From a virus: a stretch of 64,000 bases of DNA. The notes beneath the pieces were generated by a model. The model worked only from the letters and a program-made list of their open reading frames with translations, ran no database searches and was not told the DNA's origin. How positions within the stretch are numbered: position 1 is the first letter of the stretch; each line of letters begins with the position of its first letter. Of this stretch, positions 3,934-57,026 are shown piece after piece. The DNA is taken from IMG/VR virus record IMGVR_UViG_3300031718_000005, positions 1 to 64,000 of that record. The stretch is one strand, 5' to 3'. The translations under genes were made by a program, and so were the position numbers.

Positions 3934-4397
3934 TGGCCGAGTCGAAGATACCCAAGGAAGCGGTACTGTACATCTTCCGGCCCGAAGTCAACATCACCTG
4001 TGGAAAGTGCGTATTCGTCAAGAAATCGCAATGCGCGGTATTCGGTCCCTCGGAAAGCATTTCGCCAGAACGCGGATCATGCGGGTTTTACATTCATGGC
4101 GACCTTGGAGAAGCGAAGGAAATGCCGTGGATCGGCTTCATCACCAAGGTAGAAGCTGGTTACGCCGAAAACACCAACGGATTTCAGTGCAAGCGCTGCG
4201 AGTATTTTGATTCTCCCAAACTGGACTGCGAGAAGGTGGACAAGGATTCGGACGGGGACACGCCCGGAGTTATTCACCCCAATGGCTGTTGCAACCGCTG
4301 GGAAGCAGATGACACACGCGGACAGATGAGCGCCAATCAACTCATGGACAAGCTTCTGCCAAACCGCTCCAGTTATTTCGCGAGCCGCACCAAATGA
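3933..4397 (+). CDS. protein with two HiPIP-like Cys4 modules, at the position usually held by a small terminase
   Basis: CGKC-x7-C-x15-CGFY and CKRC-x9-C-x19-CCNRW. Lies immediately upstream of and overlapping the large terminase gene. Confidence 0.55.
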   Translation: MAESKIPKEAVLYIFRPEVNITCGKCVFVKKSQCAVFGPSESISPERGSCGFYIHGDLGEAKEMPWIGFITKVEAGYAENTNGFQCKRCEYFDSPKLDCEKVDKDSDGDTPGVIHPNGCCNRWEADDTRGQMSANQLMDKLLPNRSSYFASRTK

Positions 4398-6883
4398 CCA
4401 AGTACCCACGCGATCCAGCTTCCGGCATTCCCATTCCACCGGAGCCGCAGAAACGCCGCACGCCAAAGGAGCAGCAAAGCACCAGAGCCTTCACTGAACT
4501 CATTCGCCTGCACAAAATCTGGATGGATCAGCAGGCTATACTTGGAGCCGAAGAATCGCTTAAAAAGTTCCTCAAGTTGGCGTGGCCCGCGATTGAGCCT
4601 GGTTACGAGTATGTGGATGGATGGCATATCGACGCCATCTGCGATCACGTTCAGGCGGTGATGGACGGAGAGATACGGAAACTGCTTATCAACGTCCCGC
4701 CGCGTTCAACCAAATCCAGCATCGTCAGCGTTGCTCTGCCCGCATGGAGATGGATAAAAGTTCCCGAGTATCGTTGGCTGTGCTGTTCCTACGATCTAAA
4801 ATTAGCGAAGGACGATTCCCGCCGGTGTCGTGACCTCATCCGTTCAGACTGGTTCCAGAAAAACTGGGGGGACAAATTCCAGATCGACCGCAACCAGGAT
4901 GAGAAGCAATTCTTCGCCAATGACCATAAGGGCTGGCGTATCGCAGCCTCAACCGATACAGGTTCTACTGGACGCGGCGGCGACTGCATTATTTACGACG
5001 ACTTGAACGACGTCAATCAGATGAACTTCGATGCCTACATCGATAATGTAATCAATTTCCATGAACGGGTAACCCCAAGCCGGTTGAACGACCAAAAAAC
5101 AGGCACGCGCATATCTGTGCAGCAGAGGTCGCACGAACGAGACATCACCGGCCATATTCTCTCCAAGGAGTTCGGCTGGGTACACCTAAACATCCCGATG
5201 GAGTACGAGGGGAAACGACCGGCCACAGTACTTGGCTGGACCGATCCCCGCGAAACCGAGGGCGAGTTAATGTGTCCGGCAAGAACCGGCCCAACCGAAG
5301 TTGCCGATTTGAAAGTGTCCCTAGGGCCAATTGCTTACAATGGTCAGTACCAACAACGTCCTTCTCCTGGTGAAGGAGCGAAGTTCAAACGGGAATGGTG
5401 GAGATTCTACAACCCTCCCGGATTCAAGCAAACCGACGAAGCTGGGAACACGCTGCCGGTTCGCCTATCTCTTCCCGATGGAAAGATTTTAGAACGGATG
5501 CCGGTTGAATGCCCTCCGGCCTTTGAGCAAGTCTTGCAAGCCTGGGACATGGCGTTCAAAGAAGAGAAGGACTCCAACAACGTCTGCGGGCAAGCATGGG
5601 GGCGCGTAGGGTCGAATGTGTTTCTGTTGTCGCGGGACTGCTCCCGCAAGGACTTTCCCAAAACGATAGCAGCAGTGCGAAAGATGAGCCAGGAGTTTCC
5701 GTGTCCCGAAAAACTGGTGGAAGACAAGGCCAACGGACCGGCTGTCTTGCAAACCTTAAAGAACGAGATTCCGGGGCTAATCCCTTCACCGATAATTGGG
5801 GGCCTTGAATCGCTGGCAACCGCATCAACTGGTTATGTGGAGGCTGGAAATGTCTATTTGCCCAATCCCGCCGTGGCTCCTTGGGTCCTCGACTATATCG
5901 AACAGTTCGCGGTCTTCCCGCGAGGCAAGACTGATGATGATGTTGCGGCGCAGTCTCACGCTCTAAGGAGGCTGTTTGATTCGGTCGCCAATTCCTCCGT
6001 CCCAGAGTTTCGGGTTGTTCCTCGACTCAATGAGCCAAAATCAGCTTGCCACGTCGAAGAAAGTTCTGCCTTACTAGCAAGTCTCGCTCCGCACTGGCGC
6101 AGATGGGTATCGCTATCGCCTGGAGCCGCGCTGTGGTTGTGCGAGACACCCACTCGCTCTATTAGGGTTTATCGTGAACTGGATCTCGACAAGATTGACG
6201 CGCATGAAACCGGGCGGAGAATCGCCCAAGCCTCGATCCAGGACGTAACCGCTTTTACGCGGGCGATTCATGAAACCGCGAGATGGCACTGCGACATCTT
6301 CATGGAGAAGGAATGCTTCGCGGCCATCGAACCAATCGGGTGTTACGCGGAACTGGTAGCCGAAGGCATTCGCACTTATGAGCCGGATCAAGGCGACTTA
6401 TATCAACGTCAGGCCACAAAAGAAGCGTTGGGGCGGATTGCCTTTTCTCCCGAGCTAATCGAAGTAGAGGACGCGGCCTGGGACCGGTTGAGAGACTTAC
6501 TACGCTTCGCGCCCGCCGATTTCCAAACTCTCGATTACGACCGCACCGAGGCGATGAATCTCTACCGCAGAGATCCAGAAGCCTGGAGAAGCTACATGGC
6601 CTCCTGCTATGGACAGGTGCATGGCGAATGGCCCAAGATCAAGCTGTCTAGCGATTGCAAATGGACGCTTGCCGCCATGGGAGCCGCTAACCGCAATGAC
6701 AAAGCGGTAGTCAATCCGTTCATGCAGGCATTGCTGATCGGAATCACCATTCCCGATTCAGTCGCACAACCCAAACTGCGAGAAATACCGTGGGTGGGCA
6801 ACGGAGCGAAAGGCAGGCTGCCGAATCGCGGGGGAGCGCATCGCACTCGGCAAGGGATACGCCGATTCGGCATGGTGGGATGA
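4394..6883 (+). CDS. terL: terminase large subunit with a ~300-aa C-terminal extension
   Basis: Walker-A-like INVPPRSTKSS and Walker B DCIIYDDLND. Nuclease-domain signature GKTDDDVAAQSHALRRL. Total length 829 aa. Confidence 0.9.
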   Translation: MTKYPRDPASGIPIPPEPQKRRTPKEQQSTRAFTELIRLHKIWMDQQAILGAEESLKKFLKLAWPAIEPGYEYVDGWHIDAICDHVQAVMDGEIRKLLINVPPRSTKSSIVSVALPAWRWIKVPEYRWLCCSYDLKLAKDDSRRCRDLIRSDWFQKNWGDKFQIDRNQDEKQFFANDHKGWRIAASTDTGSTGRGGDCIIYDDLNDVNQMNFDAYIDNVINFHERVTPSRLNDQKTGTRISVQQRSHERDITGHILSKEFGWVHLNIPMEYEGKRPATVLGWTDPRETEGELMCPARTGPTEVADLKVSLGPIAYNGQYQQRPSPGEGAKFKREWWRFYNPPGFKQTDEAGNTLPVRLSLPDGKILERMPVECPPAFEQVLQAWDMAFKEEKDSNNVCGQAWGRVGSNVFLLSRDCSRKDFPKTIAAVRKMSQEFPCPEKLVEDKANGPAVLQTLKNEIPGLIPSPIIGGLESLATASTGYVEAGNVYLPNPAVAPWVLDYIEQFAVFPRGKTDDDVAAQSHALRRLFDSVANSSVPEFRVVPRLNEPKSACHVEESSALLASLAPHWRRWVSLSPGAALWLCETPTRSIRVYRELDLDKIDAHETGRRIAQASIQDVTAFTRAIHETARWHCDIFMEKECFAAIEPIGCYAELVAEGIRTYEPDQGDLYQRQATKEALGRIAFSPELIEVEDAAWDRLRDLLRFAPADFQTLDYDRTEAMNLYRRDPEAWRSYMASCYGQVHGEWPKIKLSSDCKWTLAAMGAANRNDKAVVNPFMQALLIGITIPDSVAQPKLREIPWVGNGAKGRLPNRGGAHRTRQGIRRFGMVG

Positions 6884-35037: not shown

Positions 35038-36540
35038 ATGGCATTCGCCACCTCACGCTCGCTCACTATCGACCACACCAAGGTATCGGGATCGGATCAG
35101 TCCAATTTCCCGGTCTTGGTGAAGATCGTCAACGGTTCGTTCGCCACGGTAGCAAACAGCGGACTGATTCAGCACACAGTAACTCAATCCGGGGGCAACC
35201 CAATCACCATGCCCGCTGATCTTATCTTTACCTCGGATTCGGGCGGGGCAACAAAGATACCGTGGGAATTTGAATCATACGACGGGACGACTGGAACACT
35301 TTACGCCTGGGTGTTGATCGCCACCGTCTCACACACAGTAGATACTGTCTTCTATGTTTTCTACGGGGATGCGACGGTTTCGACTCAGCAAAACACCGGT
35401 AGCTTCTCTGTGGCTAACGTCTGGGACGCGAACTTCAAGGGAGTCTACCATTTCCCCGATGGCACGACGCTGAACGCGAAAGATTCTACCGGCAACGCCA
35501 ACAACGGGACTCTTACTGGTTCGAGTTTGGCTACAGCCGGGAAAGTCGATGGATGTTTCGACGTTCATCCTAATCCTGACTACGCATCGGTCGGAACCCT
35601 GGGACTGACTACTACCTTTACCTTCAGTTTGTGGATCAAACCGGCAGATTTGAGATTTGGTGGATTGATCGCCCAGCAAGCACATGGTGGGGTAGAGTTC
35701 CGAACCAACAACGACAACACTCTTAGCCTACTTAGTGCTCAAGTATCCAATCTAGCCACTTCGAGCGGGACGGTGACTACTGGGGCTTTCCATTATGTCG
35801 TGCTCACCTACGATGGGTCCACCGCCAAATTCTACATTGATGGGGCGGCATCTGGAAGTACGAGCGTTTCGTTCACGTTCGGATCGGGTATATACGATAT
35901 CGGTCGCAGTGGAGGGGCGGGAGACTTTTTTTCCGGTCCTCTTGATGAAGCGCGGATATCGAGTACAATCCGATCCGCCGACTGGATCACCACTGAGTTC
36001 AACAATCAGAACTCACCCAACACGTTCATCACACTGGGCGGGGCATTAACCACACTCGCTCCAAGTGCCGCGTCGTTTACGTTTACCGACCTGACGCCCG
36101 CGCTGACGCGGAAACTCCAGCCCGCTTCAGCGTCCCTCACATTCACTGGCGCAACCCCGAGCGAAAGACAAACGCTTCACCCTGCTGCTGGTAGTCTTAC
36201 ATTTACAGGCGAAACTCCAGTAACCGGCGGTGTTCTACGGCCATCTGCGGCAACATTGGCTTTCGCTGGACGAACCCCAACACTGAAGACCGGGCTACGG
36301 CCAAACGCCGCAAGTTTCGTCTTGACGGGCGATGGTCCGCACTTACGGTTAACGCTTCACCCTACTCCCGCAGTGATTATGTTCCATGGCTTGATGCCAT
36401 CGCTTACGGGAGCTTCCTTTGCCAATGCGCGAAGATTTACACCGATAGACGCCGATCCCCGAGCATTGGCTGCGGTCGATGCCGTGAACCGTAAACTCAA
36501 ACCGCTGAATTCCTCACCACGTTCTATGGAGAAAGTATGA
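35038..36540 (+). CDS. DUF2341/LamG-like (concanavalin-type) domain protein
   Basis: SLTIDHTKVSGSDQSNFPVLV. DSTGNANNGTL...FSLWIKP...VVLTYDGSTAKFYIDG...GPLDEARISSTIRSADWITTEFNNQ. Confidence 0.75.
   Translation: MAFATSRSLTIDHTKVSGSDQSNFPVLVKIVNGSFATVANSGLIQHTVTQSGGNPITMPADLIFTSDSGGATKIPWEFESYDGTTGTLYAWVLIATVSHTVDTVFYVFYGDATVSTQQNTGSFSVANVWDANFKGVYHFPDGTTLNAKDSTGNANNGTLTGSSLATAGKVDGCFDVHPNPDYASVGTLGLTTTFTFSLWIKPADLRFGGLIAQQAHGGVEFRTNNDNTLSLLSAQVSNLATSSGTVTTGAFHYVVLTYDGSTAKFYIDGAASGSTSVSFTFGSGIYDIGRSGGAGDFFSGPLDEARISSTIRSADWITTEFNNQNSPNTFITLGGALTTLAPSAASFTFTDLTPALTRKLQPASASLTFTGATPSERQTLHPAAGSLTFTGETPVTGGVLRPSAATLAFAGRTPTLKTGLRPNAASFVLTGDGPHLRLTLHPTPAVIMFHGLMPSLTGASFANARRFTPIDADPRALAAVDAVNRKLKPLNSSPRSMEKV
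36058..36411 (+). repeat. six 20-aa (60-nt) coding repeats
   Basis: P(S/A)AASFTFTG.TP....L(R/H/Q) units: APSAASFTFTD..., PASASLTFTG..., PAAGSLTFTG..., PSAATLAFAG..., PNAASFVLTG..., PTPAVIMFHG... Confidence 0.7.
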
Positions 36541-38252
36541 AAATAATTGCCCTGCTTCTTTTAGTGTTCGCACCGCTGATGGCCCAATATGTCCCTACTC
36601 CAAATCCAGGGGACCCGATCAAGATCGCTGCTGGTGGTGGCGGCGGCTCCGGAACGGTAACTAGCGTAACCATCAATGGCACCGCGAGCCAAATTACGGC
36701 CACTGGCACCTGCACTGGCACGACGACGATCACTTGCACGCTGTCCCTGCCTAGCGCACTGGTGCTTCCTGGCACGATTGACGGCCTGACGATCACCACC
36801 ACAACAGGCACTCTGACTATCGCTGCGGCTAAGGTGTTCACAGTTAACAACACGGTCACGATAACGGGAACGGACGGCAGCACGCTTAACATCGGCGCGG
36901 GCGGAACGCTTGGATCGAATGCGTTCAACAGTACCGCGTTCGTGCCGACGACCACGACCGTGGCGGGCCATGCTTTGAGCAGTAACGTCTCCATCGCCTG
37001 TGCGGATTTGACCAACGCATCTGCTGCATGTAGCAGTTTGAATAATTTATCGCTAACCGGAACACCAACCGCTCCTACCCCAGCGGCAACCGACAACAGC
37101 ACTACGATCCCCACCACTGCTTATGTCACCACGGCTATCACGAATGCGGTAAATGCTGCTGCTGGACGCGATCTAGTGCAGGCAGCTACGGCGGCGGTGT
37201 TGCCCAACACTCCGACGTTCACGCATGTCGATGCAGGCGTCGGTTCGTTCTTTACCTCAAGCACTAATTCCGTGTTGGTAGTAGACGGCTACACGCCTCT
37301 ACTGCTGGACAGGATTCTGGTGAAGAACCAGGCGACGGCGGCGAACAATGGCATCTATTCGGTCACTCAGCTTGGCGTGGCTGCTGTGACACCGTGGATC
37401 TTGACGCGCACGCTCGATTACGATCAACCTTCGGATATGAACAACACGATTGTTCCGGTAGCGAACAATGGAACCACTAATCCTAAGAGTTCCTGGATCA
37501 TGACTTCGGTTGTGGCGACCGTCGATACTGATGCGGTTAATTTTGCGCCCTTCACTCCAAACGGGGCCAATATTGTTACTGCATCGTCACCAGGAGTCGG
37601 GCTGTGCCATTTCGCCGGGGGCACGCAGGCGTGTACTAGTTCGGCAGTGGTTAATGCCGACATCGCTAATTCTACTATTGATCTGACTACTAAAGTAACC
37701 GGAGTACTGCCATTAGCCAATGGAGGTGGAATCACGCTTACCTCTTATCCAGTAGGGGTAAATATAAGTGCTGGCATTCATGCACCAACTAGCAATGCAA
37801 CTATCGCATGGTCGTTTGATATTTTATCACCTGTATCATTCTCCAAGATACTTCTGGTAATACACGGTGCAGACACGAACGCCGGATCGTTTAATTGTCC
37901 AAATTTATCTGGTGTTAACCAAACCTCCGTGCAGTGCTATGATTGGGGAATTGCCGACTCTTCCGGTGTACTAAAGGCGGATGTCGGACCTCACCAAGTA
38001 AATTCTCCGACCGTTGCCGACTTATCAATAGCACAAGGAACCGTGACTATTTCTCCAGGTAGGTATTTCTTTATCATCACAGGCACAGCAGCTTCAGCAG
38101 ACTTGTACTTCACTGGCCCCAGCCTATATTTCTCCGGGGCGTGCGGAATAAATGAGAGCCAAGCTACATCTGGAGGGCAATTAGTGTCATTCACTCCGGC
38201 ATCTCTGTCGTGGGGACAATGCGATTGGCCACTGATACAGTTACACCAATAG
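36537..38252 (+). CDS. tail fibre protein with an N-terminal signal-peptide-like segment
   Basis: LTGTPTAPTPAATDNSTTIPTTAYV is the classic tail-fibre motif. N-terminus is MKIIALLLLVFAPLMAQ. The 3' third is low in GC. Confidence 0.75.
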   Translation: MKIIALLLLVFAPLMAQYVPTPNPGDPIKIAAGGGGGSGTVTSVTINGTASQITATGTCTGTTTITCTLSLPSALVLPGTIDGLTITTTTGTLTIAAAKVFTVNNTVTITGTDGSTLNIGAGGTLGSNAFNSTAFVPTTTTVAGHALSSNVSIACADLTNASAACSSLNNLSLTGTPTAPTPAATDNSTTIPTTAYVTTAITNAVNAAAGRDLVQAATAAVLPNTPTFTHVDAGVGSFFTSSTNSVLVVDGYTPLLLDRILVKNQATAANNGIYSVTQLGVAAVTPWILTRTLDYDQPSDMNNTIVPVANNGTTNPKSSWIMTSVVATVDTDAVNFAPFTPNGANIVTASSPGVGLCHFAGGTQACTSSAVVNADIANSTIDLTTKVTGVLPLANGGGITLTSYPVGVNISAGIHAPTSNATIAWSFDILSPVSFSKILLVIHGADTNAGSFNCPNLSGVNQTSVQCYDWGIADSSGVLKADVGPHQVNSPTVADLSIAQGTVTISPGRYFFIITGTAASADLYFTGPSLYFSGACGINESQATSGGQLVSFTPASLSWGQCDWPLIQLHQ

Positions 38253-49061: not shown

Positions 49062-49360
49062 GCCGAGGCTAGGCGAGATCTGGCGAGGTATGGCGTGGAT
49101 GGGTCAGGCGTGGTTTCGGAAAGGCGTGACACGGTATGGTTAGGCTGGGCCCGGTGAGGCGCGGTAGTGTTTGGTGTGGCGCGTTCGGGCTGGGCACGGT
49201 TCCCTATGGTGTAGTTTGGAGCGGTTAGCCGAGGCGAGGCGGTGTCAGGTTCGGCAGGATGCGGTATGGCGTGGCACGCTCAGGAGCGGTATGGTGCGTT
49301 CAGACGGGCCATGGTCTGGTTCAGCATGGTCGGGACAGGTCAGGTCAGCTAAGGCATGGA
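49062..49360 (+). repeat. G/T-skewed tract with 5-nt-phased GG (degenerate NNGGY pentamers)
   Basis: Hand count in 5-nt register: 35 of 49 pentamers from 49116 have GG at positions 3-4. Of the preceding 11 pentamers, 9 have GG at positions 2-3. Confidence 0.75.
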
Positions 49361-49369
49361 TTATTAAAA

Positions 49370-49570
49370 ATGGAAAACATCACAGAAGAACAGGTTTTGA
49401 AGTGGTTCGAGACTGCCGAATTACAAGACGCCATCGTCATCAACGCTACGGCTGCTGGCGTTATTCGGATGAGGCAGCAGCAGAACGGGCGGAAACGCCG
49501 CAGTGACGCGGGCCAGAAGCGGAAGGCTGAGGAGCCGGTGTTGAATTTCGATCCAAAGGACAGGCCATAA
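49370..49570 (+). CDS. small basic protein
   Basis: MENITEEQVLKWFE... 66 aa. The part of ORF 49259-49570 upstream of this ATG lies in the pentamer tract and was rejected. Confidence 0.45.
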   Translation: MENITEEQVLKWFETAELQDAIVINATAAGVIRMRQQQNGRKRRSDAGQKRKAEEPVLNFDPKDRP

Positions 49571-50461
49571 ATGTTTGACATCATCAATCGATATACGCAA
49601 GCTGTGCTTTACCACAGCGAGACTGCCACTACCGTCAAAGAAGCTGTCGTGGCGGCTGTCGCTACTAAAGCCAACCTGCGCGATGCCGACCTGGGCGGTG
49701 CCTACCTGCGCGGTGCCAACCTGCGCGATGCCGACCTGGGCGGTGCCAACCTGGGCGGTGCCTACCTGCGCGGTGCCAACCTGCGCGATGCCGACCTGGG
49801 CGATGCCGACCTGGGCGGTGCCGACCTGCGCGATGCCAACCTGGGCGGTGCCAACCTGGGCGGTGCCGACCTGCGCGGTGCCAACCTGCGCGGTGCCAAC
49901 CTGCGCGATGCCAACCTGGGCGGTGCCAACCTGGGCGGTGCCTACCTGCGCGGTGCCGACCTGCGCGATGCCAACCTGGGCGGTGCCGACCTGGGCGGTG
50001 CCTACCTGCGCGGTGCCAACCTGCGCGATGCCGACCTGGGCGGTGCCAACCTGCGCGATGCCAACCTGGGCGGTGCCGACCTGGGCGAATTCAGGACCGA
50101 TCTAATTGCTGAGATTCTGAAACTGCCTGATGAGCTTGAAAATCTTCGCGATCAGTTGATTGCCGGTAAAATCAGCGGCTCGACCTATACCGGCGAGTGT
50201 GCTTGTTTGGCTGGGACAATCGCTAAGCATCGTGGGCTCACTACAATCTCAAGCGGAGACGTAATGTCGGACAATGCCGTAAAGTTCCAGGTTGACAGCT
50301 CTTCGCCTCGTGAAAAATGGTTCCTGAATGTCCAGAAGGGCGACACGCCGGAAACAAGCCAGATCGCCAAGATCACGCTCGGCTGGATTGAGGAGGCGAT
50401 TGCGATACGCGATCACATCCGAGCAGTACCGGCGAAGCTGCTGGAGGAGATAAAGCGATGA
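49571..50461 (+). CDS. pentapeptide-repeat protein with a C-terminal CxxG-family domain
   Basis: 28 consecutive A(N/D/Y)L(R/G)(G/D) pentapeptides, followed by ...YTGECACLAGTIAKHRGL... Confidence 0.85.
   Translation: MFDIINRYTQAVLYHSETATTVKEAVVAAVATKANLRDADLGGAYLRGANLRDADLGGANLGGAYLRGANLRDADLGDADLGGADLRDANLGGANLGGADLRGANLRGANLRDANLGGANLGGAYLRGADLRDANLGGADLGGAYLRGANLRDADLGGANLRDANLGGADLGEFRTDLIAEILKLPDELENLRDQLIAGKISGSTYTGECACLAGTIAKHRGLTTISSGDVMSDNAVKFQVDSSSPREKWFLNVQKGDTPETSQIAKITLGWIEEAIAIRDHIRAVPAKLLEEIKR
49670..50089 (+). repeat. 28 tandem 15-nt units GCC(A/G/T)ACCTG(C/G)GCG(G/A)T
   Basis: All 28 units were enumerated by hand. Only positions 4, 10 and 14 vary, plus position 15 in the last unit. 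Confidence 0.95.
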
Positions 50462-50655
50462 CGAACCTTGACTTGATTCGTGAATTGCGCGGGAATGTCT
50501 GTCGATGCGGCAAGCCCAAACAACCGAAACAAACATTCTGTCGGAAGTGTTACTTCTCGCTTCCAGAGGAAAAACGGCAAGCGCTTTACAGTCGCGTTGG
50601 CGAAGGATACGCCGAAGCCTACGAGGACGCAATTTGCGAACTGGACGCAAGGTAA
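50458..50655 (+). CDS. small zinc-binding protein
   Basis: CRCGKPKQPKQTFCRKC. ATGA coupling. Confidence 0.5.
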   Translation: MTNLDLIRELRGNVCRCGKPKQPKQTFCRKCYFSLPEEKRQALYSRVGEGYAEAYEDAICELDAR

Positions 50656-51044: not shown

Positions 51045-51290
51045 TTGAGTTCATGGGAGGTTCTATTGGCTGAGCAATTGGTTGAGGATCGCATCGCGGC
51101 GGCGAGACTGGCTCGGGCGAGAGCTTTGGCGGTCTTGGTAAAGAACGATTGCATTCGGCTCTTGATCGGGTTGACCGACGACGAATGGCAAAACATGGCG
51201 GTTCAGGCCAAGATCAACGCTCAGAAGCCGCCTAGCGAAGAGACGCGGCAGATGTTACTGGATATCGTGAAAGGGTGGAAGTGCGAATGA
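51045..51290 (+). CDS. hypothetical protein
   Basis: TTG start. 81 aa, helical. Confidence 0.5.
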   Translation: MSSWEVLLAEQLVEDRIAAARLARARALAVLVKNDCIRLLIGLTDDEWQNMAVQAKINAQKPPSEETRQMLLDIVKGWKCE

Positions 51291-52063
51291 GCGAACAGCA
51301 AAACCTTGTGGTGCAGGACGAGCCGAAGGCAGTAGTTCCGATCACCATCTACGAGATATTCGCGCAACTAGCCCGCGATCCTAACGTTGACCCAGTTCGC
51401 ATTCAACAGTTGATGGAACTGCAAGAGCGGGCTGAGGCACGGCAAGCCGAGAAGGAGTTCATTGCCGCCATGAACCGCTTGCAGCCGAAACTGCCACGGA
51501 TCACAAAACAGGGCAAGATCGCATTTGAGTCTCAGCGTACTGGCCAATCGCAGAACACGCCCTATGCTCGGTTCGAGGACATCGACGCCAAGATCCGACC
51601 ATTGCTGCATGACGAGGGGTTCTCAATCAGTTTCGGCACGGCTGCGCTAGAGAAGGGCGGCATTCTCATTACAGCCACATTGAGCCACGCGGCGGGGCAC
51701 AGTCGCACAGAGTCCATGCCGTTGCCGTTTGACACCAGCGGCAGCAAGAACAGCATACAGGCCGTGGGAAGCACAATGGCGTACGGGAAACGGTATTTAA
51801 TTTGCGCCATGCTGAACATCATCACCGTGGGTGAAGATGACGACGGCAACGCTGTCTCGTTCATCGACCAACAGCAACTCAACAGCATCATGGACCTGAT
51901 TATCGCTTCCGAGATGGACGAAACTTCTCAGGCCGCGTTTCGCAAGCTGATGAACGTGGAGCGGATTGAGGATATCCGCAAATCTAACTATCCGAAGGCC
52001 ATGTCCGCGCTGCACGCCAAGTTCAAGAAGTGGCGGCAAGAACATCCCGAGGTTTCTGTGTGA
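51287..52063 (+). CDS. erf: ERF-family single-strand annealing protein
   Basis: PYARFEDIDAKIRPLL and QAVGSTMAYGKRYLICAMLNI match the P22 Erf-type motifs (GATSSYARKYCLNGLFGI). Confidence 0.75.
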   Translation: MSEQQNLVVQDEPKAVVPITIYEIFAQLARDPNVDPVRIQQLMELQERAEARQAEKEFIAAMNRLQPKLPRITKQGKIAFESQRTGQSQNTPYARFEDIDAKIRPLLHDEGFSISFGTAALEKGGILITATLSHAAGHSRTESMPLPFDTSGSKNSIQAVGSTMAYGKRYLICAMLNIITVGEDDDGNAVSFIDQQQLNSIMDLIIASEMDETSQAAFRKLMNVERIEDIRKSNYPKAMSALHAKFKKWRQEHPEVSV

Positions 52064-52773
52064 AGTATTTACCCTACGAACAGAGAAGTCGCGAGTGGTT
52101 CGCTGCCAGGTTGGGAATTCCTTGCTCCTCGGAGTTCCACAAGATTATCACTCCGAAGACTATGAAGGTATCCAGCCAGGCACCGGCCTACGCTCATCGT
52201 CTGCTCGCAGAGTGGGTGAGCGGAGCGCAGTTAGACGCTTACGAATCCCCACACATGATGCGGGGTCAAGAGCTTGAAGCGGATGCGATAGCGGCATACG
52301 AACTTCTAACCGAAACCGAAACCACTCCGGGTAACTTCGTCACCACCGATGACGGAATGTTGGGTTGCTCGCCGGACAGGTTGATCGGCGAGGTAGGCGA
52401 CCTCGAATTGAAATGCCCAGCTTTGCAAACTCAGATCGGCTTCGCCATCGACGGCTTAGACGATGAGTACAAGTGCCAGGTGCAGGGTCGCATGCTGATC
52501 CACGGCCGAGAATTCTGCGACCTGTTCTCTTACCATCCGCTCGTATCCATCCCGCCGATTCGCCTACATCGCGACGAGAAGTTTATCGGTGCTATGCGCC
52601 CAGTGCTCGATACATTCGTTGAGCAACTACTGAAGGCACGGGAACTACTAGAGCAGCGCTACGGTCCATTCACGCGCAACGAACCGAAACCAGCAGCGGC
52701 CGACATGCTAGGGGTGAGCGACAAGGATTTGCAGGATATTCTCAAGGCCAGGGAGATTGTAGAAAAATGGTGA
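52060..52773 (+). CDS. YqaJ/lambda-Exo-like exonuclease
   Basis: QRSREWFAARLGIPCSSEFHKIIT. GCSPDRLI...GDLELKCP gives the PD-(D/E)xK arrangement. GTGA coupling to erf. Confidence 0.75.
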   Translation: MKYLPYEQRSREWFAARLGIPCSSEFHKIITPKTMKVSSQAPAYAHRLLAEWVSGAQLDAYESPHMMRGQELEADAIAAYELLTETETTPGNFVTTDDGMLGCSPDRLIGEVGDLELKCPALQTQIGFAIDGLDDEYKCQVQGRMLIHGREFCDLFSYHPLVSIPPIRLHRDEKFIGAMRPVLDTFVEQLLKARELLEQRYGPFTRNEPKPAAADMLGVSDKDLQDILKAREIVEKW

Positions 52774-55095: not shown

Positions 55096-56304
55096 GTGCC
55101 GGCCGTGCGTTGGAGAAATGGCTTGGCGCAAGCTCTTAAAGCTCCGTTTCCCTGGTTTGGCGGCAAGTCTCGAGTCGCACGCCTGGTTTGGGATCGTTTT
55201 GGAAATTGTGACAATTTCGTAGAGCCTTTCGCCGGTTCCCTCGCGGTTCTGTTGGGTCGTCCCCATGCTCCTCAAACCGAAACCGTCAACGATCTGGATT
55301 GCTACCTAGCCAACTTCTGGCGAGCTCTCAGCAAAGACCCCGTTGAATTAGCCGAGCACGCCGATTGGCCGGTAAACGAAGCCGATCTCCACGCCCGTCA
55401 TCTGTGGCTCGTGAATCAGACTGAATTCCGGGAGCGCATGAAGACGGATCCAGACTTCTACGATGTCAAGATAGCGGGCTGGTGGGTATGGGGAATCTCT
55501 CAATGGATCGGTTCAGGATGGTGCTCGAGGCCGGAATGGACCGGGCGCACCAATGCAGGGCGAGTTAACCGAGGTGTTCATCGCAACGTCAACGCTGAGA
55601 TTCGTCCGTTTCTTTCAAATGGCGGCATGGGCGTCCATCGGCAACTTCCGCAGCTCTCAGGCGACTCAACCGCACAAGGCCGTGGCGTCTTCAGTAACGA
55701 CGTACTGGACCGCAAGCGTCCGATGATCCACGGAACACATATCGGCAAGGGCGTCCATGCGAAGCGTGCCAACCTTTCAGGGCGGGTAAACGGCGTCGGA
55801 GTGCATGCTGACCGCTGCAACGCGCTCCTCGAGTACTTCTACGCCTTAGCCGACCGATTACGACGCGTCCGGGTATGCTGTGGCGACTGGACTCGAGTAC
55901 TCGGGCCGTCAGTCATGGTCAAGCACGGTGTCTGTGGAATCTTCCTTGACCCACCGTACGACATGCGCATTGTTTCAAACGCGGGATCCGGGCGAGACGG
56001 CGCGGCGCCTTCAGACGGATTATATTCAGAACACGATAACGAACTATCGGCAGAGGTAAGGAAATGGGCACTCGAGAACGGCAATAACCCACTCCTGAGA
56101 ATCGCCCTCTGCGGATATCAGGAGGAACACGACATGCCGGAAGAATGGGAATGTGTCGCCTGGAAAGCGCAAGGCGGGTACGGAAACCAGGGTACCGAGA
56201 CGAACGGGCGAAAGAACGCCGGCCGGGAGCGAATCTGGTTCAGCCCCCACTGCCTGAAACTGGGATTATTCGGCTTAGTGGAATTTGAAAGTGCGAACGT
56301 CTGA
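55096..56304 (+). CDS. DNA methyltransferase, D12/Dam-like (N6-adenine class)
   Basis: FPWFGGKSRVA...VEPFAGSLAV and IFLDPPYD. GTG start. 402 aa, with a long insertion relative to typical Dam. Confidence 0.75.
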   Translation: MPAVRWRNGLAQALKAPFPWFGGKSRVARLVWDRFGNCDNFVEPFAGSLAVLLGRPHAPQTETVNDLDCYLANFWRALSKDPVELAEHADWPVNEADLHARHLWLVNQTEFRERMKTDPDFYDVKIAGWWVWGISQWIGSGWCSRPEWTGRTNAGRVNRGVHRNVNAEIRPFLSNGGMGVHRQLPQLSGDSTAQGRGVFSNDVLDRKRPMIHGTHIGKGVHAKRANLSGRVNGVGVHADRCNALLEYFYALADRLRRVRVCCGDWTRVLGPSVMVKHGVCGIFLDPPYDMRIVSNAGSGRDGAAPSDGLYSEHDNELSAEVRKWALENGNNPLLRIALCGYQEEHDMPEEWECVAWKAQGGYGNQGTETNGRKNAGRERIWFSPHCLKLGLFGLVEFESANV

Positions 56305-56408: not shown

Positions 56409-57026
56409 ATGCTAAAGGCACTTGATCTGTTCTGTGGGGCGGGAGGCGCAACAAAGGGCTTGCAGCGTGCCGGGTTCCACGTCACAGGTGTCGATATCAA
56501 TCCGCAGCCGCGCTATTGCGGGGATGAGTTTCACCAGGCCGATGCACTCACGTTTCCGCTGGAAGGGTTCAATTTCATTTGGGCCAGTCCGCCTTGCCTT
56601 AAATACACCACAGCGACGGCCAGGTATCGCAAAGCCGGTAAAGTTTATCCGCAATTGATCGAGCCGATGCGGGCACGGCTAACCGGTTGCGGTGTTTTGT
56701 GGGTAATTGAAAACGTTCCGCTCGCTCCGGTTCGCCGTGATCTGACTTTGTGTGGTTCGCAATTTGGCTTGCCAATTGTACGACATAGGGTATTCGAATT
56801 TAGTTGCCCGATTGGCGTGTTGCTTCCCTCGTGTGCGCACGTAAAGAATCCGATTACGGTATGCGGAGACGGGATGTGCTCAACGACGCGGGCACGAAGA
56901 CGCAAACAGGGACTTCCGCCCGACGTGCGTATTGCTGAAAAAAGAGCCGCCATGGCAATTCCGCCAGCCTACAGCGAGTTCATCGGCAGGCAGGTAATGG
57001 AAATACTTCGGGAGGGCGCACGGTAG
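56409..57026 (+). CDS. DNA cytosine-5 methyltransferase, unusually short
   Basis: Motif I LDLFCGAGGATKG, motif IV SPPCLKYT, motif VI IENV, motif VIII QFGLPIVRHRVF, motif X-like AMAIPPAYSEFIG. Only 205 aa. Confidence 0.75.
   Translation: MLKALDLFCGAGGATKGLQRAGFHVTGVDINPQPRYCGDEFHQADALTFPLEGFNFIWASPPCLKYTTATARYRKAGKVYPQLIEPMRARLTGCGVLWVIENVPLAPVRRDLTLCGSQFGLPIVRHRVFEFSCPIGVLLPSCAHVKNPITVCGDGMCSTTRARRRKQGLPPDVRIAEKRAAMAIPPAYSEFIGRQVMEILREGAR

Follow-up and report, generated by a model that had tools for sequence, protein, structure and literature searches.

The window analysed here, a 64-kb stretch of viral DNA, carries on its plus strand a complete gene for a three-part pentapeptide-repeat protein of 296 aa (49571..50461), in which a 33-aa N-terminal cap (49571..49669) is followed by an in-frame array of 28 head-to-tail 15-nt units (49670-50089) and a C-terminal domain of 123 aa (50090..50458). 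Pfam PF00805 places the protein in the pentapeptide-repeat family (167.5 bits against a cut-off of 20.2, E=3.6e-50), and a protein lookup had no record of the exact protein. The NF052603 model (Alr5209 family) scored 140 bits at a cut-off of 125, a sum from three overlapping repeat stretches on its 113 positions. As the repeats alone account for this score and both terminal domains lie outside it, we do not assign the protein to that family.

An earlier note on this DNA had described 28 units of one pattern, which holds for units 1-27, all reading GCC[A/G/T]ACCTG[C/G]GCG[G/A]T, but not for unit 28, GCCGACCTGGGCGAA (ADLGE), which ends in GAA and in which the A at position 15 replaces Asp by Glu, a non-synonymous change. 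At the protein level the unit is thus A-[N/D/Y]-L-[R/G]-[G/D/E], with base counts of A14/G10/T4 at position 4, C14/G14 at position 10 and G18/A10 at position 14. Counting unit by unit, we found all three variable bases to be non-synonymous, 8 of the 12 possible base combinations to be in use, and the silent positions to be invariant throughout the array (39 non-synonymous and 0 synonymous differences from its own consensus), all as the note had stated. Furthermore, Asp is encoded by GAC whenever it is residue 2 and by GAT whenever it is residue 5 of a unit, as Gly is by GGC at residue 4 and by GGT at residue 5. Such position-dependent codons rule out preferred codon usage as the source of the uniform silent sites, and the units are therefore identical by descent.

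Superimposed on the 15-nt period (87 % matches) is a super-period of 60 nt (91 %; both from TRF), that is, four units or one coil of the solenoid. The longest exact repeat internal to the array measures 70 nt, so that unit order can be resolved by ordinary reads, and the four longest of the internal repeats recur at distances of 20, 16, 4, and 12 units, each a multiple of one coil. Chance is excluded as the origin of the repeat pattern: a two-unit probe allowing up to 3 mismatches found 26 matches, all within the array, and 0 in 100 shuffles. Open reading frames laid over the array in another frame (49575-50105, plus strand) or on the minus strand (49762-49929) are by-products of the repeat.

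An AlphaFold2 model of the whole protein (pLDDT 88.6) places one strand per five residues from residue 38 to 170, and the array is accordingly predicted to form a rod of about seven coils of a right-handed quadrilateral beta-solenoid, the coil number that the note had expected from structure prediction. Foldseek gave a probability of 1.00 to the solenoids of NP275/276, HetL, MfpA, QnrB1, and AlbG. The N-terminal cap is modelled as two short strands and a helix (E2-6, E12-16, H22-31); its type, M.I.I.NR(W/Y)T..VL(F/Y), is common to many phage pentapeptide proteins and corresponds to N-flank cluster N0, present at 34 of 72 viral loci. The C-terminal domain is conserved in 35 homologues at 41-85 % identity, with invariant residues that include DGSTYxGECACLxGT, SSPRE.WF, and GDTPE, and is predicted to consist of helices, two beta-hairpins, and a long terminal helix (pLDDT 87.6). 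It belongs to no family in Pfam, PHROG, NCBIfam, or PADLOC, a fold search gave no match in the PDB (best E=2.9) or BFVD (best E=0.59), and a sequence profile search of the PDB was empty. The protein combines the C-domain residues Y..G.C.CL.GT, E, G.TP, and W with the N-cap motif, and thereby falls into what we define in this analysis as the type-B family of phage pentapeptide proteins (N-cap, array, and Cys-x-Cys C-domain).

The start codon of the repeat gene lies directly 3' of the TAA of a small upstream ORF (66 aa, 49370..49570, plus strand), for which no family match was obtained. At the other end of the gene, its TGA and the start codon of the following ORF overlap as ATGA; this downstream ORF encodes a Cys-rich protein of 65 aa (50458..50655, plus strand) with a weak match to PHROG 24410. 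These abutting and overlapping junctions therefore indicate a tightly packed, translationally coupled operon. Further along the same strand follow genes for an ERF single-strand annealing protein (51275-52063; PF04404, E=1.3e-14; PHROG 155) and a YqaJ-type exonuclease (52030-52773; PF09588, E=2.9e-16; PHROG 149), confirming that the phage encodes both as the note had claimed; together with two DNA methyltransferases they make up the early operon in which the repeat gene sits. Rfam, promoter, and terminator scans around the gene found nothing. Overall, the early-operon neighbours comprise ral, sieB, gene 17, cIII, kil, erf, RecT, Gp157, or DNA methyltransferases. For instance, P22-like phages carry the homologue immediately after the anti-restriction gene ral, in an accessory stretch that also holds genes for superinfection exclusion, among them sieB and gene 17.

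Homogenised arrays in phages and their turnover

We compared arrays from viruses and cellular genomes using a synonymous-blind pattern that was identical for the viral and the bacterial set. Viral arrays had a median synonymous homogeneity of 0.985, with 71 % of them at or above 0.95 (n=115), whereas arrays from cellular genomes reached a median of only 0.77, with 8 % at or above 0.95 (n=113), and every unit in them was distinct at the DNA level (Mann-Whitney p=2e-24 for phage versus bacterial homogeneity). Selection bias introduced by the pattern is ruled out, as the identical scan of bacterial genomes returned degenerate arrays. The expectation in the note that natural pentapeptide-repeat genes are degenerate in DNA is thus correct for cellular genomes, but not for phages. 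A homogenised array is the general condition of phage-encoded pentapeptide genes, unlike their cellular counterparts, and this contrast appears to be new to the literature.

The very cassette of the window recurs in at least 120 viral contigs of 37-66 % GC, joined to at least 8 unrelated C-terminal domains, and among the viral loci its arrays comprise anything from 4 to 66 units, no length being favoured. Around the array, N- and C-terminal modules are paired combinatorially. The idea of a uniquely special cassette was nevertheless weakened by the synonymous-blind control, which revealed about 45 backbones among regular phage arrays; that of the window makes up only about 9 %, and the backbones track contig GC.

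Comparison among orthologues, which the note had proposed as a check, revealed that each possesses its own homogenised array and that backbone codons differ between lineages. Across 13 orthologous lineages there were 0-4 synonymous variant types per array, on backbones as different as GCC AAC CTG CGC GGT, TCC GAC CTG AGC GGC, GCT GAC CTT AGT GGT, and GCG AAC CTC AGC TCT, so units are more alike within than between orthologous arrays. Near-identical genomes among the relatives of this phage are polymorphic in unit number and order. For instance, eps34, g341c, and NM-3 share flanks with 0 mismatches in 327 positions and carry 12, 17, and 24 units; ST104 and Salfasec13b, likewise at 0/327, carry 21 and 26, and PVN06 and PEi21, at 1/306, carry 25 and 18. 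Between relatives with matching flanks the edges of the array are common while the interiors differ. Two metagenomic pairs, in which collapsed assembly could contribute to the difference, behave similarly: L015 and L028 differ by 1 mismatch in more than 8 kb and have about 24 and 4 units, and L010 and L011 are 100 % identical over 4.4 kb and have 12 and 8. Published data agree in kind, since phages L and ST64T are >99.9 % identical and one of their two differing sites is a 15-bp, one-unit indel in orf232 (PMC8022706), and pipB3 of a P22-like prophage ranges from 7 to 27 pentapeptides among S. Pullorum strains (PMC6449608).

Taken together, these comparisons show that the array of the window is a VNTR-like tract under concerted evolution. 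Mechanistically, slipped-strand mispairing as well as unequal or short-homology recombination, between single units and multi-unit blocks, would multiply, remove, and reorder cassettes at a pace far above that of point substitution. Such turnover would wipe silent differences inside the array while the backbone codons drift between lineages, and the ERF protein and exonuclease of the phage itself could catalyse the recombination between units. Among the options raised in the note, concerted evolution is therefore the one that stands, and neither a dedicated reshuffling system nor a single recent amplification alone is upheld. A single, very recent amplification is insufficient because the closest relative, L027, retains the cassette, with all five backbone codons the same as in the window, despite flanks that are silent-saturated (pS 0.75). 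Under purely neutral concerted evolution the backbone should drift as fast as silent sites of single-copy sequence do. The probability of sharing this backbone (0.41^5 = 0.012) in turn suggests that a process beyond neutral concerted evolution may act, and either nucleotide-level constraint or exchange of arrays between phages may lie behind it.

Exposed residues and possible functions of the solenoid

Codons 2, 4, and 5 of the unit vary whatever the backbone. Pooled over 15 lineage clusters, the variant types comprise 66 non-synonymous and 10 synonymous ones, where 29 % synonymous would be expected (p=9e-4), and variation is thus in excess at exposed residues. The array of the window alone contains only about 4-5 mutational variant types, too few for its all-non-synonymous pattern to be significant (about 0.2-0.3 under neutrality), and the case for selection rests on the pooled lineages for this reason. 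Within the window array, Tyr occupies one solenoid face in 4 of 4 cases (p=0.006), and 11 of 14 Arg residues fall on two faces (p=0.03). Likely, the inward-pointing Ala and Leu are fixed and variation persists only at the outward residues i-1, i+1, and i+2, where selection would keep it and arrange it by face, one or two faces holding every Tyr and the majority of Arg. The variability of the array may hence be adaptive.

As a whole, we consider it probable that the locus is best explained as an in-frame VNTR-like tract in ongoing concerted evolution, whose exposed residues are selected and which provides a variable binding surface. The solenoid would be a surface of variable length and composition within an accessory early protein, in which the conserved C-terminal domain would carry a constant activity and the solenoid would be the variable binding part. 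Such a protein may act in phage-host or phage-phage conflict.

Part of these observations would also fit a tract that is simply hypermutable and neutral, in which unit number and order are immaterial over a broad range, the solenoid simply serves the C-domain as a stiff spacer or solubility module, and homogeneity follows from the mechanics of replication and recombination instead of from selection for variability. Unit counts modulo 4 were 22/17/22/19 for the viral loci listed for the shared cassette, and this lack of a coil-register preference implies that array length seems weakly constrained. The range of unit numbers is equally permissive (2 to 28 in the C-domain family, 4 to 66 on the shared cassette), homogenisation is generic across the roughly 45 backbones and many unrelated partner domains, and phage annealing proteins are encoded nearby. 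However, the non-synonymous excess is not what would be expected if the retained differences were unselected, the face-specific Tyr and Arg together with block repeats in coil register imply a constraint on the solenoid surface, and reading frame and array have been kept in many phage lineages. We therefore regard neutrality as possible, yet rather doubtful.

A further-reaching version of the variable-surface reading is that phage pentapeptide arrays form a class of self-renewing hypervariable surfaces, a recombination-driven and template-free analogue of diversity-generating retroelements (DGR) and antigenic-variation loci. If this were true, reshuffling would tune solenoid length and exposed residues against a host defence or target protein that itself varies, unrelated phages could exchange arrays and flanking domains by way of the shared cassette, and the gene of the window would represent an undescribed family for counter-defence or host takeover. 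We put this forward as a speculative proposal that, taken whole, has a modest chance of being right.

The earlier note had raised the possibility of a DNA-mimic decoy. In this reading, a solenoid resembling B-DNA would titrate a DNA-binding host enzyme, for instance a restriction or BREX-type system, RecBCD, or, as with Qnr and MfpA, gyrase or topoisomerase IV, and cassette reshuffling would diversify the charge pattern to track host variants. The predicted fold, matching MfpA, QnrB1, and AlbG, speaks for such a role, as do an early operon shared with recombination genes and two methyltransferases, the position of the P22-like homologue directly after ral and near sieB and gene 17, the restriction of variation to exposed residues, and the mild acidity of the array (net charge -6, pI 4.5). 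This acidity is, however, of low density, amounting to 20 acidic against 14 basic residues in 140 aa, and is not conserved, since relatives have arrays with net charges between -10 and +3 and the Edwardsiella PVN06 protein has a pI of 8.9. Moreover, the Tyr/Arg stripe gives one face a net charge of +4, the opposite of a phosphate mimic, so that the dense, family-conserved negative surface expected of a DNA mimic is missing. The models for Qnr (NF033086, 46.1 bits against a cut-off of 240) and MfpA (NF000349, 50.6 bits against 360) are far from being reached, the 28 five-residue units run without any insertion and thus without Qnr-type loops, and lengths between 4 and 66 units are hard to square with the mimicry of a defined DNA segment. 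PADLOC gave no match for the repeat protein, and a literature search found no paper reporting an anti-defence pentapeptide protein; searches on DNA-mimic phage pentapeptides, concerted evolution of pentapeptide repeats, and DUF5758 likewise returned no functional study. DNA mimicry is, in our assessment, unlikely.

Less likely still, the main evolutionary role of the array might be that of a recombination linker which, by way of a cassette common to otherwise unrelated phages, offers co-infecting phages or prophages hundreds of bases of homology at which to swap N- and C-terminal domains and neighbouring genes. No other segment within 24 kb resembles the DNA of a catalogued phage, the exact backbone is spread over contigs of very different GC content, terminal modules combine freely around it, and the window and L027 agree in backbone although their flanks are silent-saturated. 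Against this stand the small share of that backbone among regular phage arrays and the many others that track contig GC; furthermore, domains could be shuffled without a crossover in the array, and a benefit at the population level leaves the maintenance of the protein unexplained. Finally, targeted hypermutation by a DGR, or site-specific shuffling from silent donors, would account for variable bases at three positions only and in many combinations, but is rejected as most improbable. The 64-kb window holds no second cassette copy or template repeat, and the substitutions (A/G/T, C/G, and G/A) lack the adenine specificity of a DGR. Many unrelated phages show this pattern, too, with no reverse transcriptase among the annotated neighbours, and relatives differ from one another by indels of whole units and by rearranged blocks.

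The gene of the window is a clear and unusually long case of a common state, namely phage pentapeptide-repeat genes as coding VNTRs. In phages these solenoids are renewed within the time in which strains diverge, whereas in cells they are static. This turnover points to arms-race biology, and the contrast between phages and cells provides a simple sequence signature for finding such genes. Caution is needed in genome analysis, because many contigs end in arrays, indicating that the arrays break short-read assemblies, and because repeat similarity alone can lead to phage arrays being labelled wrongly as resistance or virulence genes of the Qnr or PipB type. For the rare family with the Cys-x-Cys C-domain, its sole cultured carrier, Bordetella phage vB_BaM-IFTN6, offers an experimental handle.

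Relationship to known systems

Ocr, ArdA, and lambda Gam are encoded by early accessory genes, too, and are DNA-mimic inhibitors of restriction or RecBCD; their folds, however, are unrelated to that of the window protein, and searches of Pfam, PHROG, PADLOC, and NCBIfam revealed no sequence or family relationship. They are also far more acidic than the window protein, whose array carries a net charge of only -6 per 140 aa.

Qnr, MfpA, AlbG, and McbG, which protect or inhibit topoisomerases and are regarded as DNA mimics, share with the window array the right-handed quadrilateral beta-solenoid of A(D/N)LXX repeats. Loops interrupting the solenoid of Qnr are needed for quinolone protection. Unlike the window array, cellular pentapeptide arrays, compared as a class, are degenerate in DNA, and charge is not conserved in the phage family. 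In addition, Qnr/MfpA-type proteins dimerise via a short C-terminal helix (PMC10886550), where the window protein has a separate 120-aa domain.

Variation in repeat number is known from Legionella DotG/IcmE, in which the number of repeat blocks differs between species and even between strains and has been ascribed to intragenic recombination (PMC6761968). DotG/IcmE weakly matches the repeat profile, but it is a membrane-spanning component of type IVB secretion with different flanking domains, not a small cytoplasmic phage protein. The synthetic “Beta1” beta-solenoids (PDB 4yc5, 4ycq, and 4yfo) gave the top PDB profile matches (E=1.5e-42) and are among the best folds; these designs are man-made, whereas the idealised regularity of the window array is natural and arises via homogenisation.

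Much closer are the proteins of P22-like Salmonella phages, represented by orf232 (ST64T and L), orf19 (ST104), gp42 (epsilon34), gp37 (g341c), and “PipB3” (prophage phiSPU1), with further homologues in Edwardsiella Yokohamaviruses. They, too, are encoded in the early operon, near ral, erf, kil, and cIII, on the 15-nt backbone of the window, GCC-NAC-CTG-NNC-GNT, their arrays are 84-90 % identical to the window array, and their unit number and order vary between near-identical genomes. Their N- and C-terminal domains, by contrast, are unrelated to those of the window protein; the Salmonella phage proteins carry a type A C-domain (...YFISITNGEYVRAGCQNH...RPDW), and the fourth residue of their unit is R/C/Y instead of R/G. 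The published label “T3SS effector-like” for these proteins rests on repeat similarity only.

True orthologues of the window protein are gp49 of Bordetella phage vB_BaM-IFTN6 and about 35 metagenomic proteins (P0001-P0035), which have the same N-cap, array, and Cys-x-Cys C-domain, the latter being 41-85 % identical in the metagenomic proteins and 42.5 % in IFTN6. Each of their arrays is homogenised, with about 2-14 units in the protein database and at least 20-25 in viral contigs, and several are built on other backbone codons and on other residue alphabets such as S/T/V.

Array anatomy and genomic setting

The pentapeptide array (49670-50089, + strand) comprises 28 in-frame 15-nt units repeated head to tail within ORF 49571..50461 (296 aa). 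The pattern is real and was accurately described in the earlier note: units 1-27 all conform without mismatch to GCC[A/G/T]ACCTG[C/G]GCG[G/A]T and use eight of the 12 possible base combinations, with only unit 28, ending in GAA (ADLGE), departing from the formula, again by a non-synonymous change. In total, the units depart from their consensus by 39 non-synonymous and no synonymous changes, so that, as that note had claimed, the variable bases all change the residue and the silent positions are invariant. Furthermore, Asp is always encoded by GAC at residue 2 and by GAT at residue 5, and Gly by GGC at residue 4 and GGT at residue 5; because codons are fixed by residue position, the units are related by descent via single-base changes, and convergence on preferred codons is ruled out. 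TRF gave 91% matches for a period of 60 nt, which spans four units or one coil of the solenoid, versus 87% for the 15-nt period, and the four longest internal exact repeats lie at offsets of 20, 16, 4 and 12 units, that is, whole coils. As the longest of these measures 70 nt, unit order could be resolved by ordinary reads. A two-unit probe matched 26 times, always within the array (0 matches in 100 shuffles), and thus detected no second cassette copy elsewhere in the 64 kb.

Translational coupling links the repeat gene to a small ORF on either side. Genes for an ERF annealing protein and a YqaJ exonuclease, whose presence the earlier note had correctly pointed out, lie ~0.8 kb downstream, followed a few kb downstream of the repeat gene by two DNA methyltransferases (55096-56304 and 56409-57026). 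Within the array, 14 Gly-GGC units each generate CCTGG (a CCWGG Dcm/EcoRII-type site) and 14 Arg-CGC units each generate ACCTGC (a BspMI/BfuAI-type site), amounting to 14 sites of either kind in 420 bp, a density that probably follows incidentally from the codons. A G/T-rich non-coding stretch of ~300 nt (49062-49360, + strand) directly precedes the small ORF and the repeat gene. It has 'GG' at ~5-nt spacing (GGCGA GGTAT GGCGT GGATG GGTCA ...) as well as imperfect direct repeats of motifs resembling GGTATGGCGTGG (68-79% identity). It matched nothing in Rfam at E<=1, displayed no sigma-70 promoter or terminator consensus, and could represent an iteron/origin, a row of protein-binding sites or the remains of an older repeat.

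As a whole, the phage is highly novel and very distant from catalogued phages, the array being the sole part of 24 kb that resembles any of 50,697 of them at the nucleotide level. Within positions 1-48000, which contain the large terminase (4394-6883) and a weakly matching tail-fibre-like protein (36537-38252), no PHROG family was found at E<=1e-5 for eight of the ten largest ORFs tested, and no tRNA genes are present.

Relatives, unit turnover and concerted evolution

Pentapeptide genes from P22-like Salmonella phages, Edwardsiella Yokohamaviruses and one Bordetella phage match the array at 84-90% identity, and all have the backbone GCC-NAC-CTG-NNC-GNT in common. The N- and C-terminal domains of the Salmonella and Edwardsiella proteins (type A) differ from those of the window protein, whereas the Bordetella protein possesses the same ones (type B: N-cap, array of ~2-28 units, C-domain). 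A search with the C-domain only yielded 35 uncharacterised homologues (41-85% identity) and 14 viral loci, with Bordetella vB_BaM-IFTN6 as the single cultured phage; Y..G.C.CL.GT, E, G.TP and W are invariant. In the P22-like homologue, deposited annotations place the start ~48 codons too early, so that the gene overlaps ral (ST64T, L002, 2779-3477; ST160, L021, 1279-1962; Salfasec13b, L023, 1279-2142); the conserved start is the Met of MNSADLSK..., used in epsilon34, g341c, ST104 and NM-3.

Within each orthologous array silent sites are homogeneous and two to four non-synonymous positions vary, in codons 2, 4 and 5, while backbone codons differ by lineage (TCC GAC CTG AGC GGC; GCT GAC CTT AGT GGT; GCG AAC CTC AGC TCT; GCC GAC CTC ACG GGC), which together form the classical signature of concerted evolution. 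Unit counts change between isolates with virtually identical flanks: eps34, g341c and NM-3 carry 12, 17 and 24 units (0/327 nt flank difference), ST104 and Salfasec13b 21 and 26 (0/327), and Edwardsiella PVN06 and PEi21 25 and 18 (1/306); array edges are in common and interiors rearranged. Two metagenomic pairs, L015/L028 (1 mismatch in >8 kb) and L010/L011 (100% identical over 4.4 kb), have about 24 versus 4 and 12 versus 8 units, although repeats can collapse in such assemblies. Similarly, only two differences separate phages L and ST64T over 40 kb, one of them the gain or loss of a single 15-bp unit in orf232 (PMC8022706), and a 'pipB3' homologue in a P22-like prophage ranges from 7 to 27 pentapeptides across S. 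Pullorum strains (PMC6449608). Unit turnover is thus much faster than substitution. The concerted evolution proposed in the earlier note is supported, as orthologues revealed the opposite of ordinary silent divergence with a common unit order.

Metagenomic viral contigs often start or end inside or beside a pentapeptide array (L006, L008, L009, L011, L014), and contig edges truncate 19 of 80 loci (L029-L108), where seven ORFs lack their 5' end and 12 their 3' end; short-read assembly evidently breaks off at these arrays, and metagenomic unit counts need caution.

The same note had also considered active cassette reshuffling, but nothing indicates dedicated diversification machinery, since the 64 kb hold no template copy, base changes are not adenine-specific, and relatives differ by indels of entire units and by rearranged blocks. 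Array turnover would need no more than replication slippage and unequal or short-homology recombination, and the phage's own ERF and exonuclease module is a plausible catalyst of unit recombination; ERF, RecT or Gp157 recur in the neighbourhoods of relatives.

Homogenised arrays are a hallmark of phages

The exact window backbone occurs on at least 120 viral contigs, of which the 80 analysed range from 37% to 66% GC and carry 4-66 units. This cassette is joined to at least eight unrelated C-terminal domains and at least 11 N-terminal types, which assort combinatorially. The commonest partner is Pfam DUF5758 (44 of 63 complete C-flanks among L029-L108, for instance L029 and L031), on which we found no literature in the collection searched. 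The type A, L034, L078 and L053 partner domains display a common motif, '...(A/M/T)GC-x4-5-(S/T)-x3-(W/F)', and may constitute one superfamily.

A scan for arrays of six or more units, using a peptide-level pattern that leaves all synonymous positions free, gave a median synonymous homogeneity of 0.985 for 115 viral arrays (71% at >=0.95) and of 0.77 for 113 arrays from bacterial and archaeal genomes (8% at >=0.95; Mann-Whitney p=2e-24). Viral arrays had a median distinct-unit fraction of 0.50 and about 45 backbones tracking contig GC, with the window backbone tied for commonest (~9%); in the genome arrays every unit was distinct. DNA-level degeneracy, the premise of the earlier note, therefore holds for cells, whereas homogeneity is no anomaly but a general property of phage pentapeptide genes. 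Twelve of the 113 genome-assembly arrays are fully homogenised, including L340 (Citrobacter sp. ANG330) and L329 (Castellaniella denitrificans), the latter on a 278-bp contig with little beyond the array; these 12 may lie in prophages. No paper describing this contrast was found in the literature searched, and we regard the generality as more interesting than the single window gene.

Selection, predicted fold and function

Pfam recognised pentapeptide repeats in the protein (PF00805, E=3.6e-50), and its AlphaFold2 model (pLDDT 88.6) comprises an N-terminal cap (residues 1-31) made of two strands plus a helix, a solenoid (38-170) of perfect regularity in which every five residues contribute one strand, and a C-terminal domain of helices and hairpins (172-295). 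Foldseek aligned the model at probability 1.00 with the solved solenoids NP275/276, HetL, MfpA, QnrB1 and AlbG, and with synthetic consensus 'Beta1' proteins. Neither family collections (Pfam, PHROG, NCBIfam, PADLOC) nor a sequence-profile search of PDB returned a match for the C-terminal 123 residues, and fold searches found no relative, with hits no better than E=2.9 in PDB and E=0.59 in BFVD; the gene belongs to a rare sub-family whose C-domain is without fold relative in these searches.

We propose, with moderate confidence, an early accessory protein acting in phage-host or phage-phage conflict, in which the solenoid would provide a variable binding surface and the conserved C-domain a constant activity. 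A serious rival, which we consider rather unlikely, is a largely neutral, unstable spacer. With only four or five mutational variant types, the all-non-synonymous pattern of the window array is not significant alone (~0.2-0.3 under neutrality). Pooling 15 independent lineage clusters gave 66 non-synonymous versus 10 synonymous variant types (29% synonymous expected, p=9e-4, in a test conservative under transition bias), and 138 pooled P22-like units contained no synonymous type. The established geometry of pentapeptide solenoids turns residues i and i-2 inward and i-1, i+1 and i+2 outward, and the retained variation falls on exactly the outward-facing set, on any backbone. In the window array, residues are also arranged by face: a single face holds all four Tyr (p=0.006), and two faces hold 11 of the 14 Arg (p=0.03). 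All five backbone codons and the exit junction are also common to L027, the closest relative, although silent sites in the flanks are saturated (pS 0.75) and 41% of same-residue codons are identical there (chance of sharing all five, 0.41^5 = 0.012), which hints at nucleotide-level constraint or array exchange between phages.

The DNA mimicry or anti-defence role raised in the earlier note is a minority possibility that we hold to be improbable. The solenoid fold would suit it, as would the position of the P22-like homologue after the anti-restriction gene ral in the PL operon, beside superinfection-exclusion genes, that of the PVN06 homologue near a cytosine methyltransferase, and that of the window gene near ERF, exonuclease and methyltransferases. 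However, the window array is only mildly acidic (20 acidic versus 14 basic residues, net -6) with one face net positive and bearing a Tyr/Arg stripe, arrays of relatives range from net -10 to +3 (one protein has a pI of 8.9), and array length is nearly unconstrained, without coil-register preference (unit counts modulo 4 of 22/17/22/19 on the 80 contigs with the shared backbone). Furthermore, the literature searched contained no report of an anti-defence pentapeptide protein, the Qnr loops are absent, and scores against the Qnr and MfpA models (46 and 51 bits) fall far below their cut-offs (240 and 360). Among phage pentapeptide-repeat proteins of variable repeat number, the product of the window gene is long but typical.
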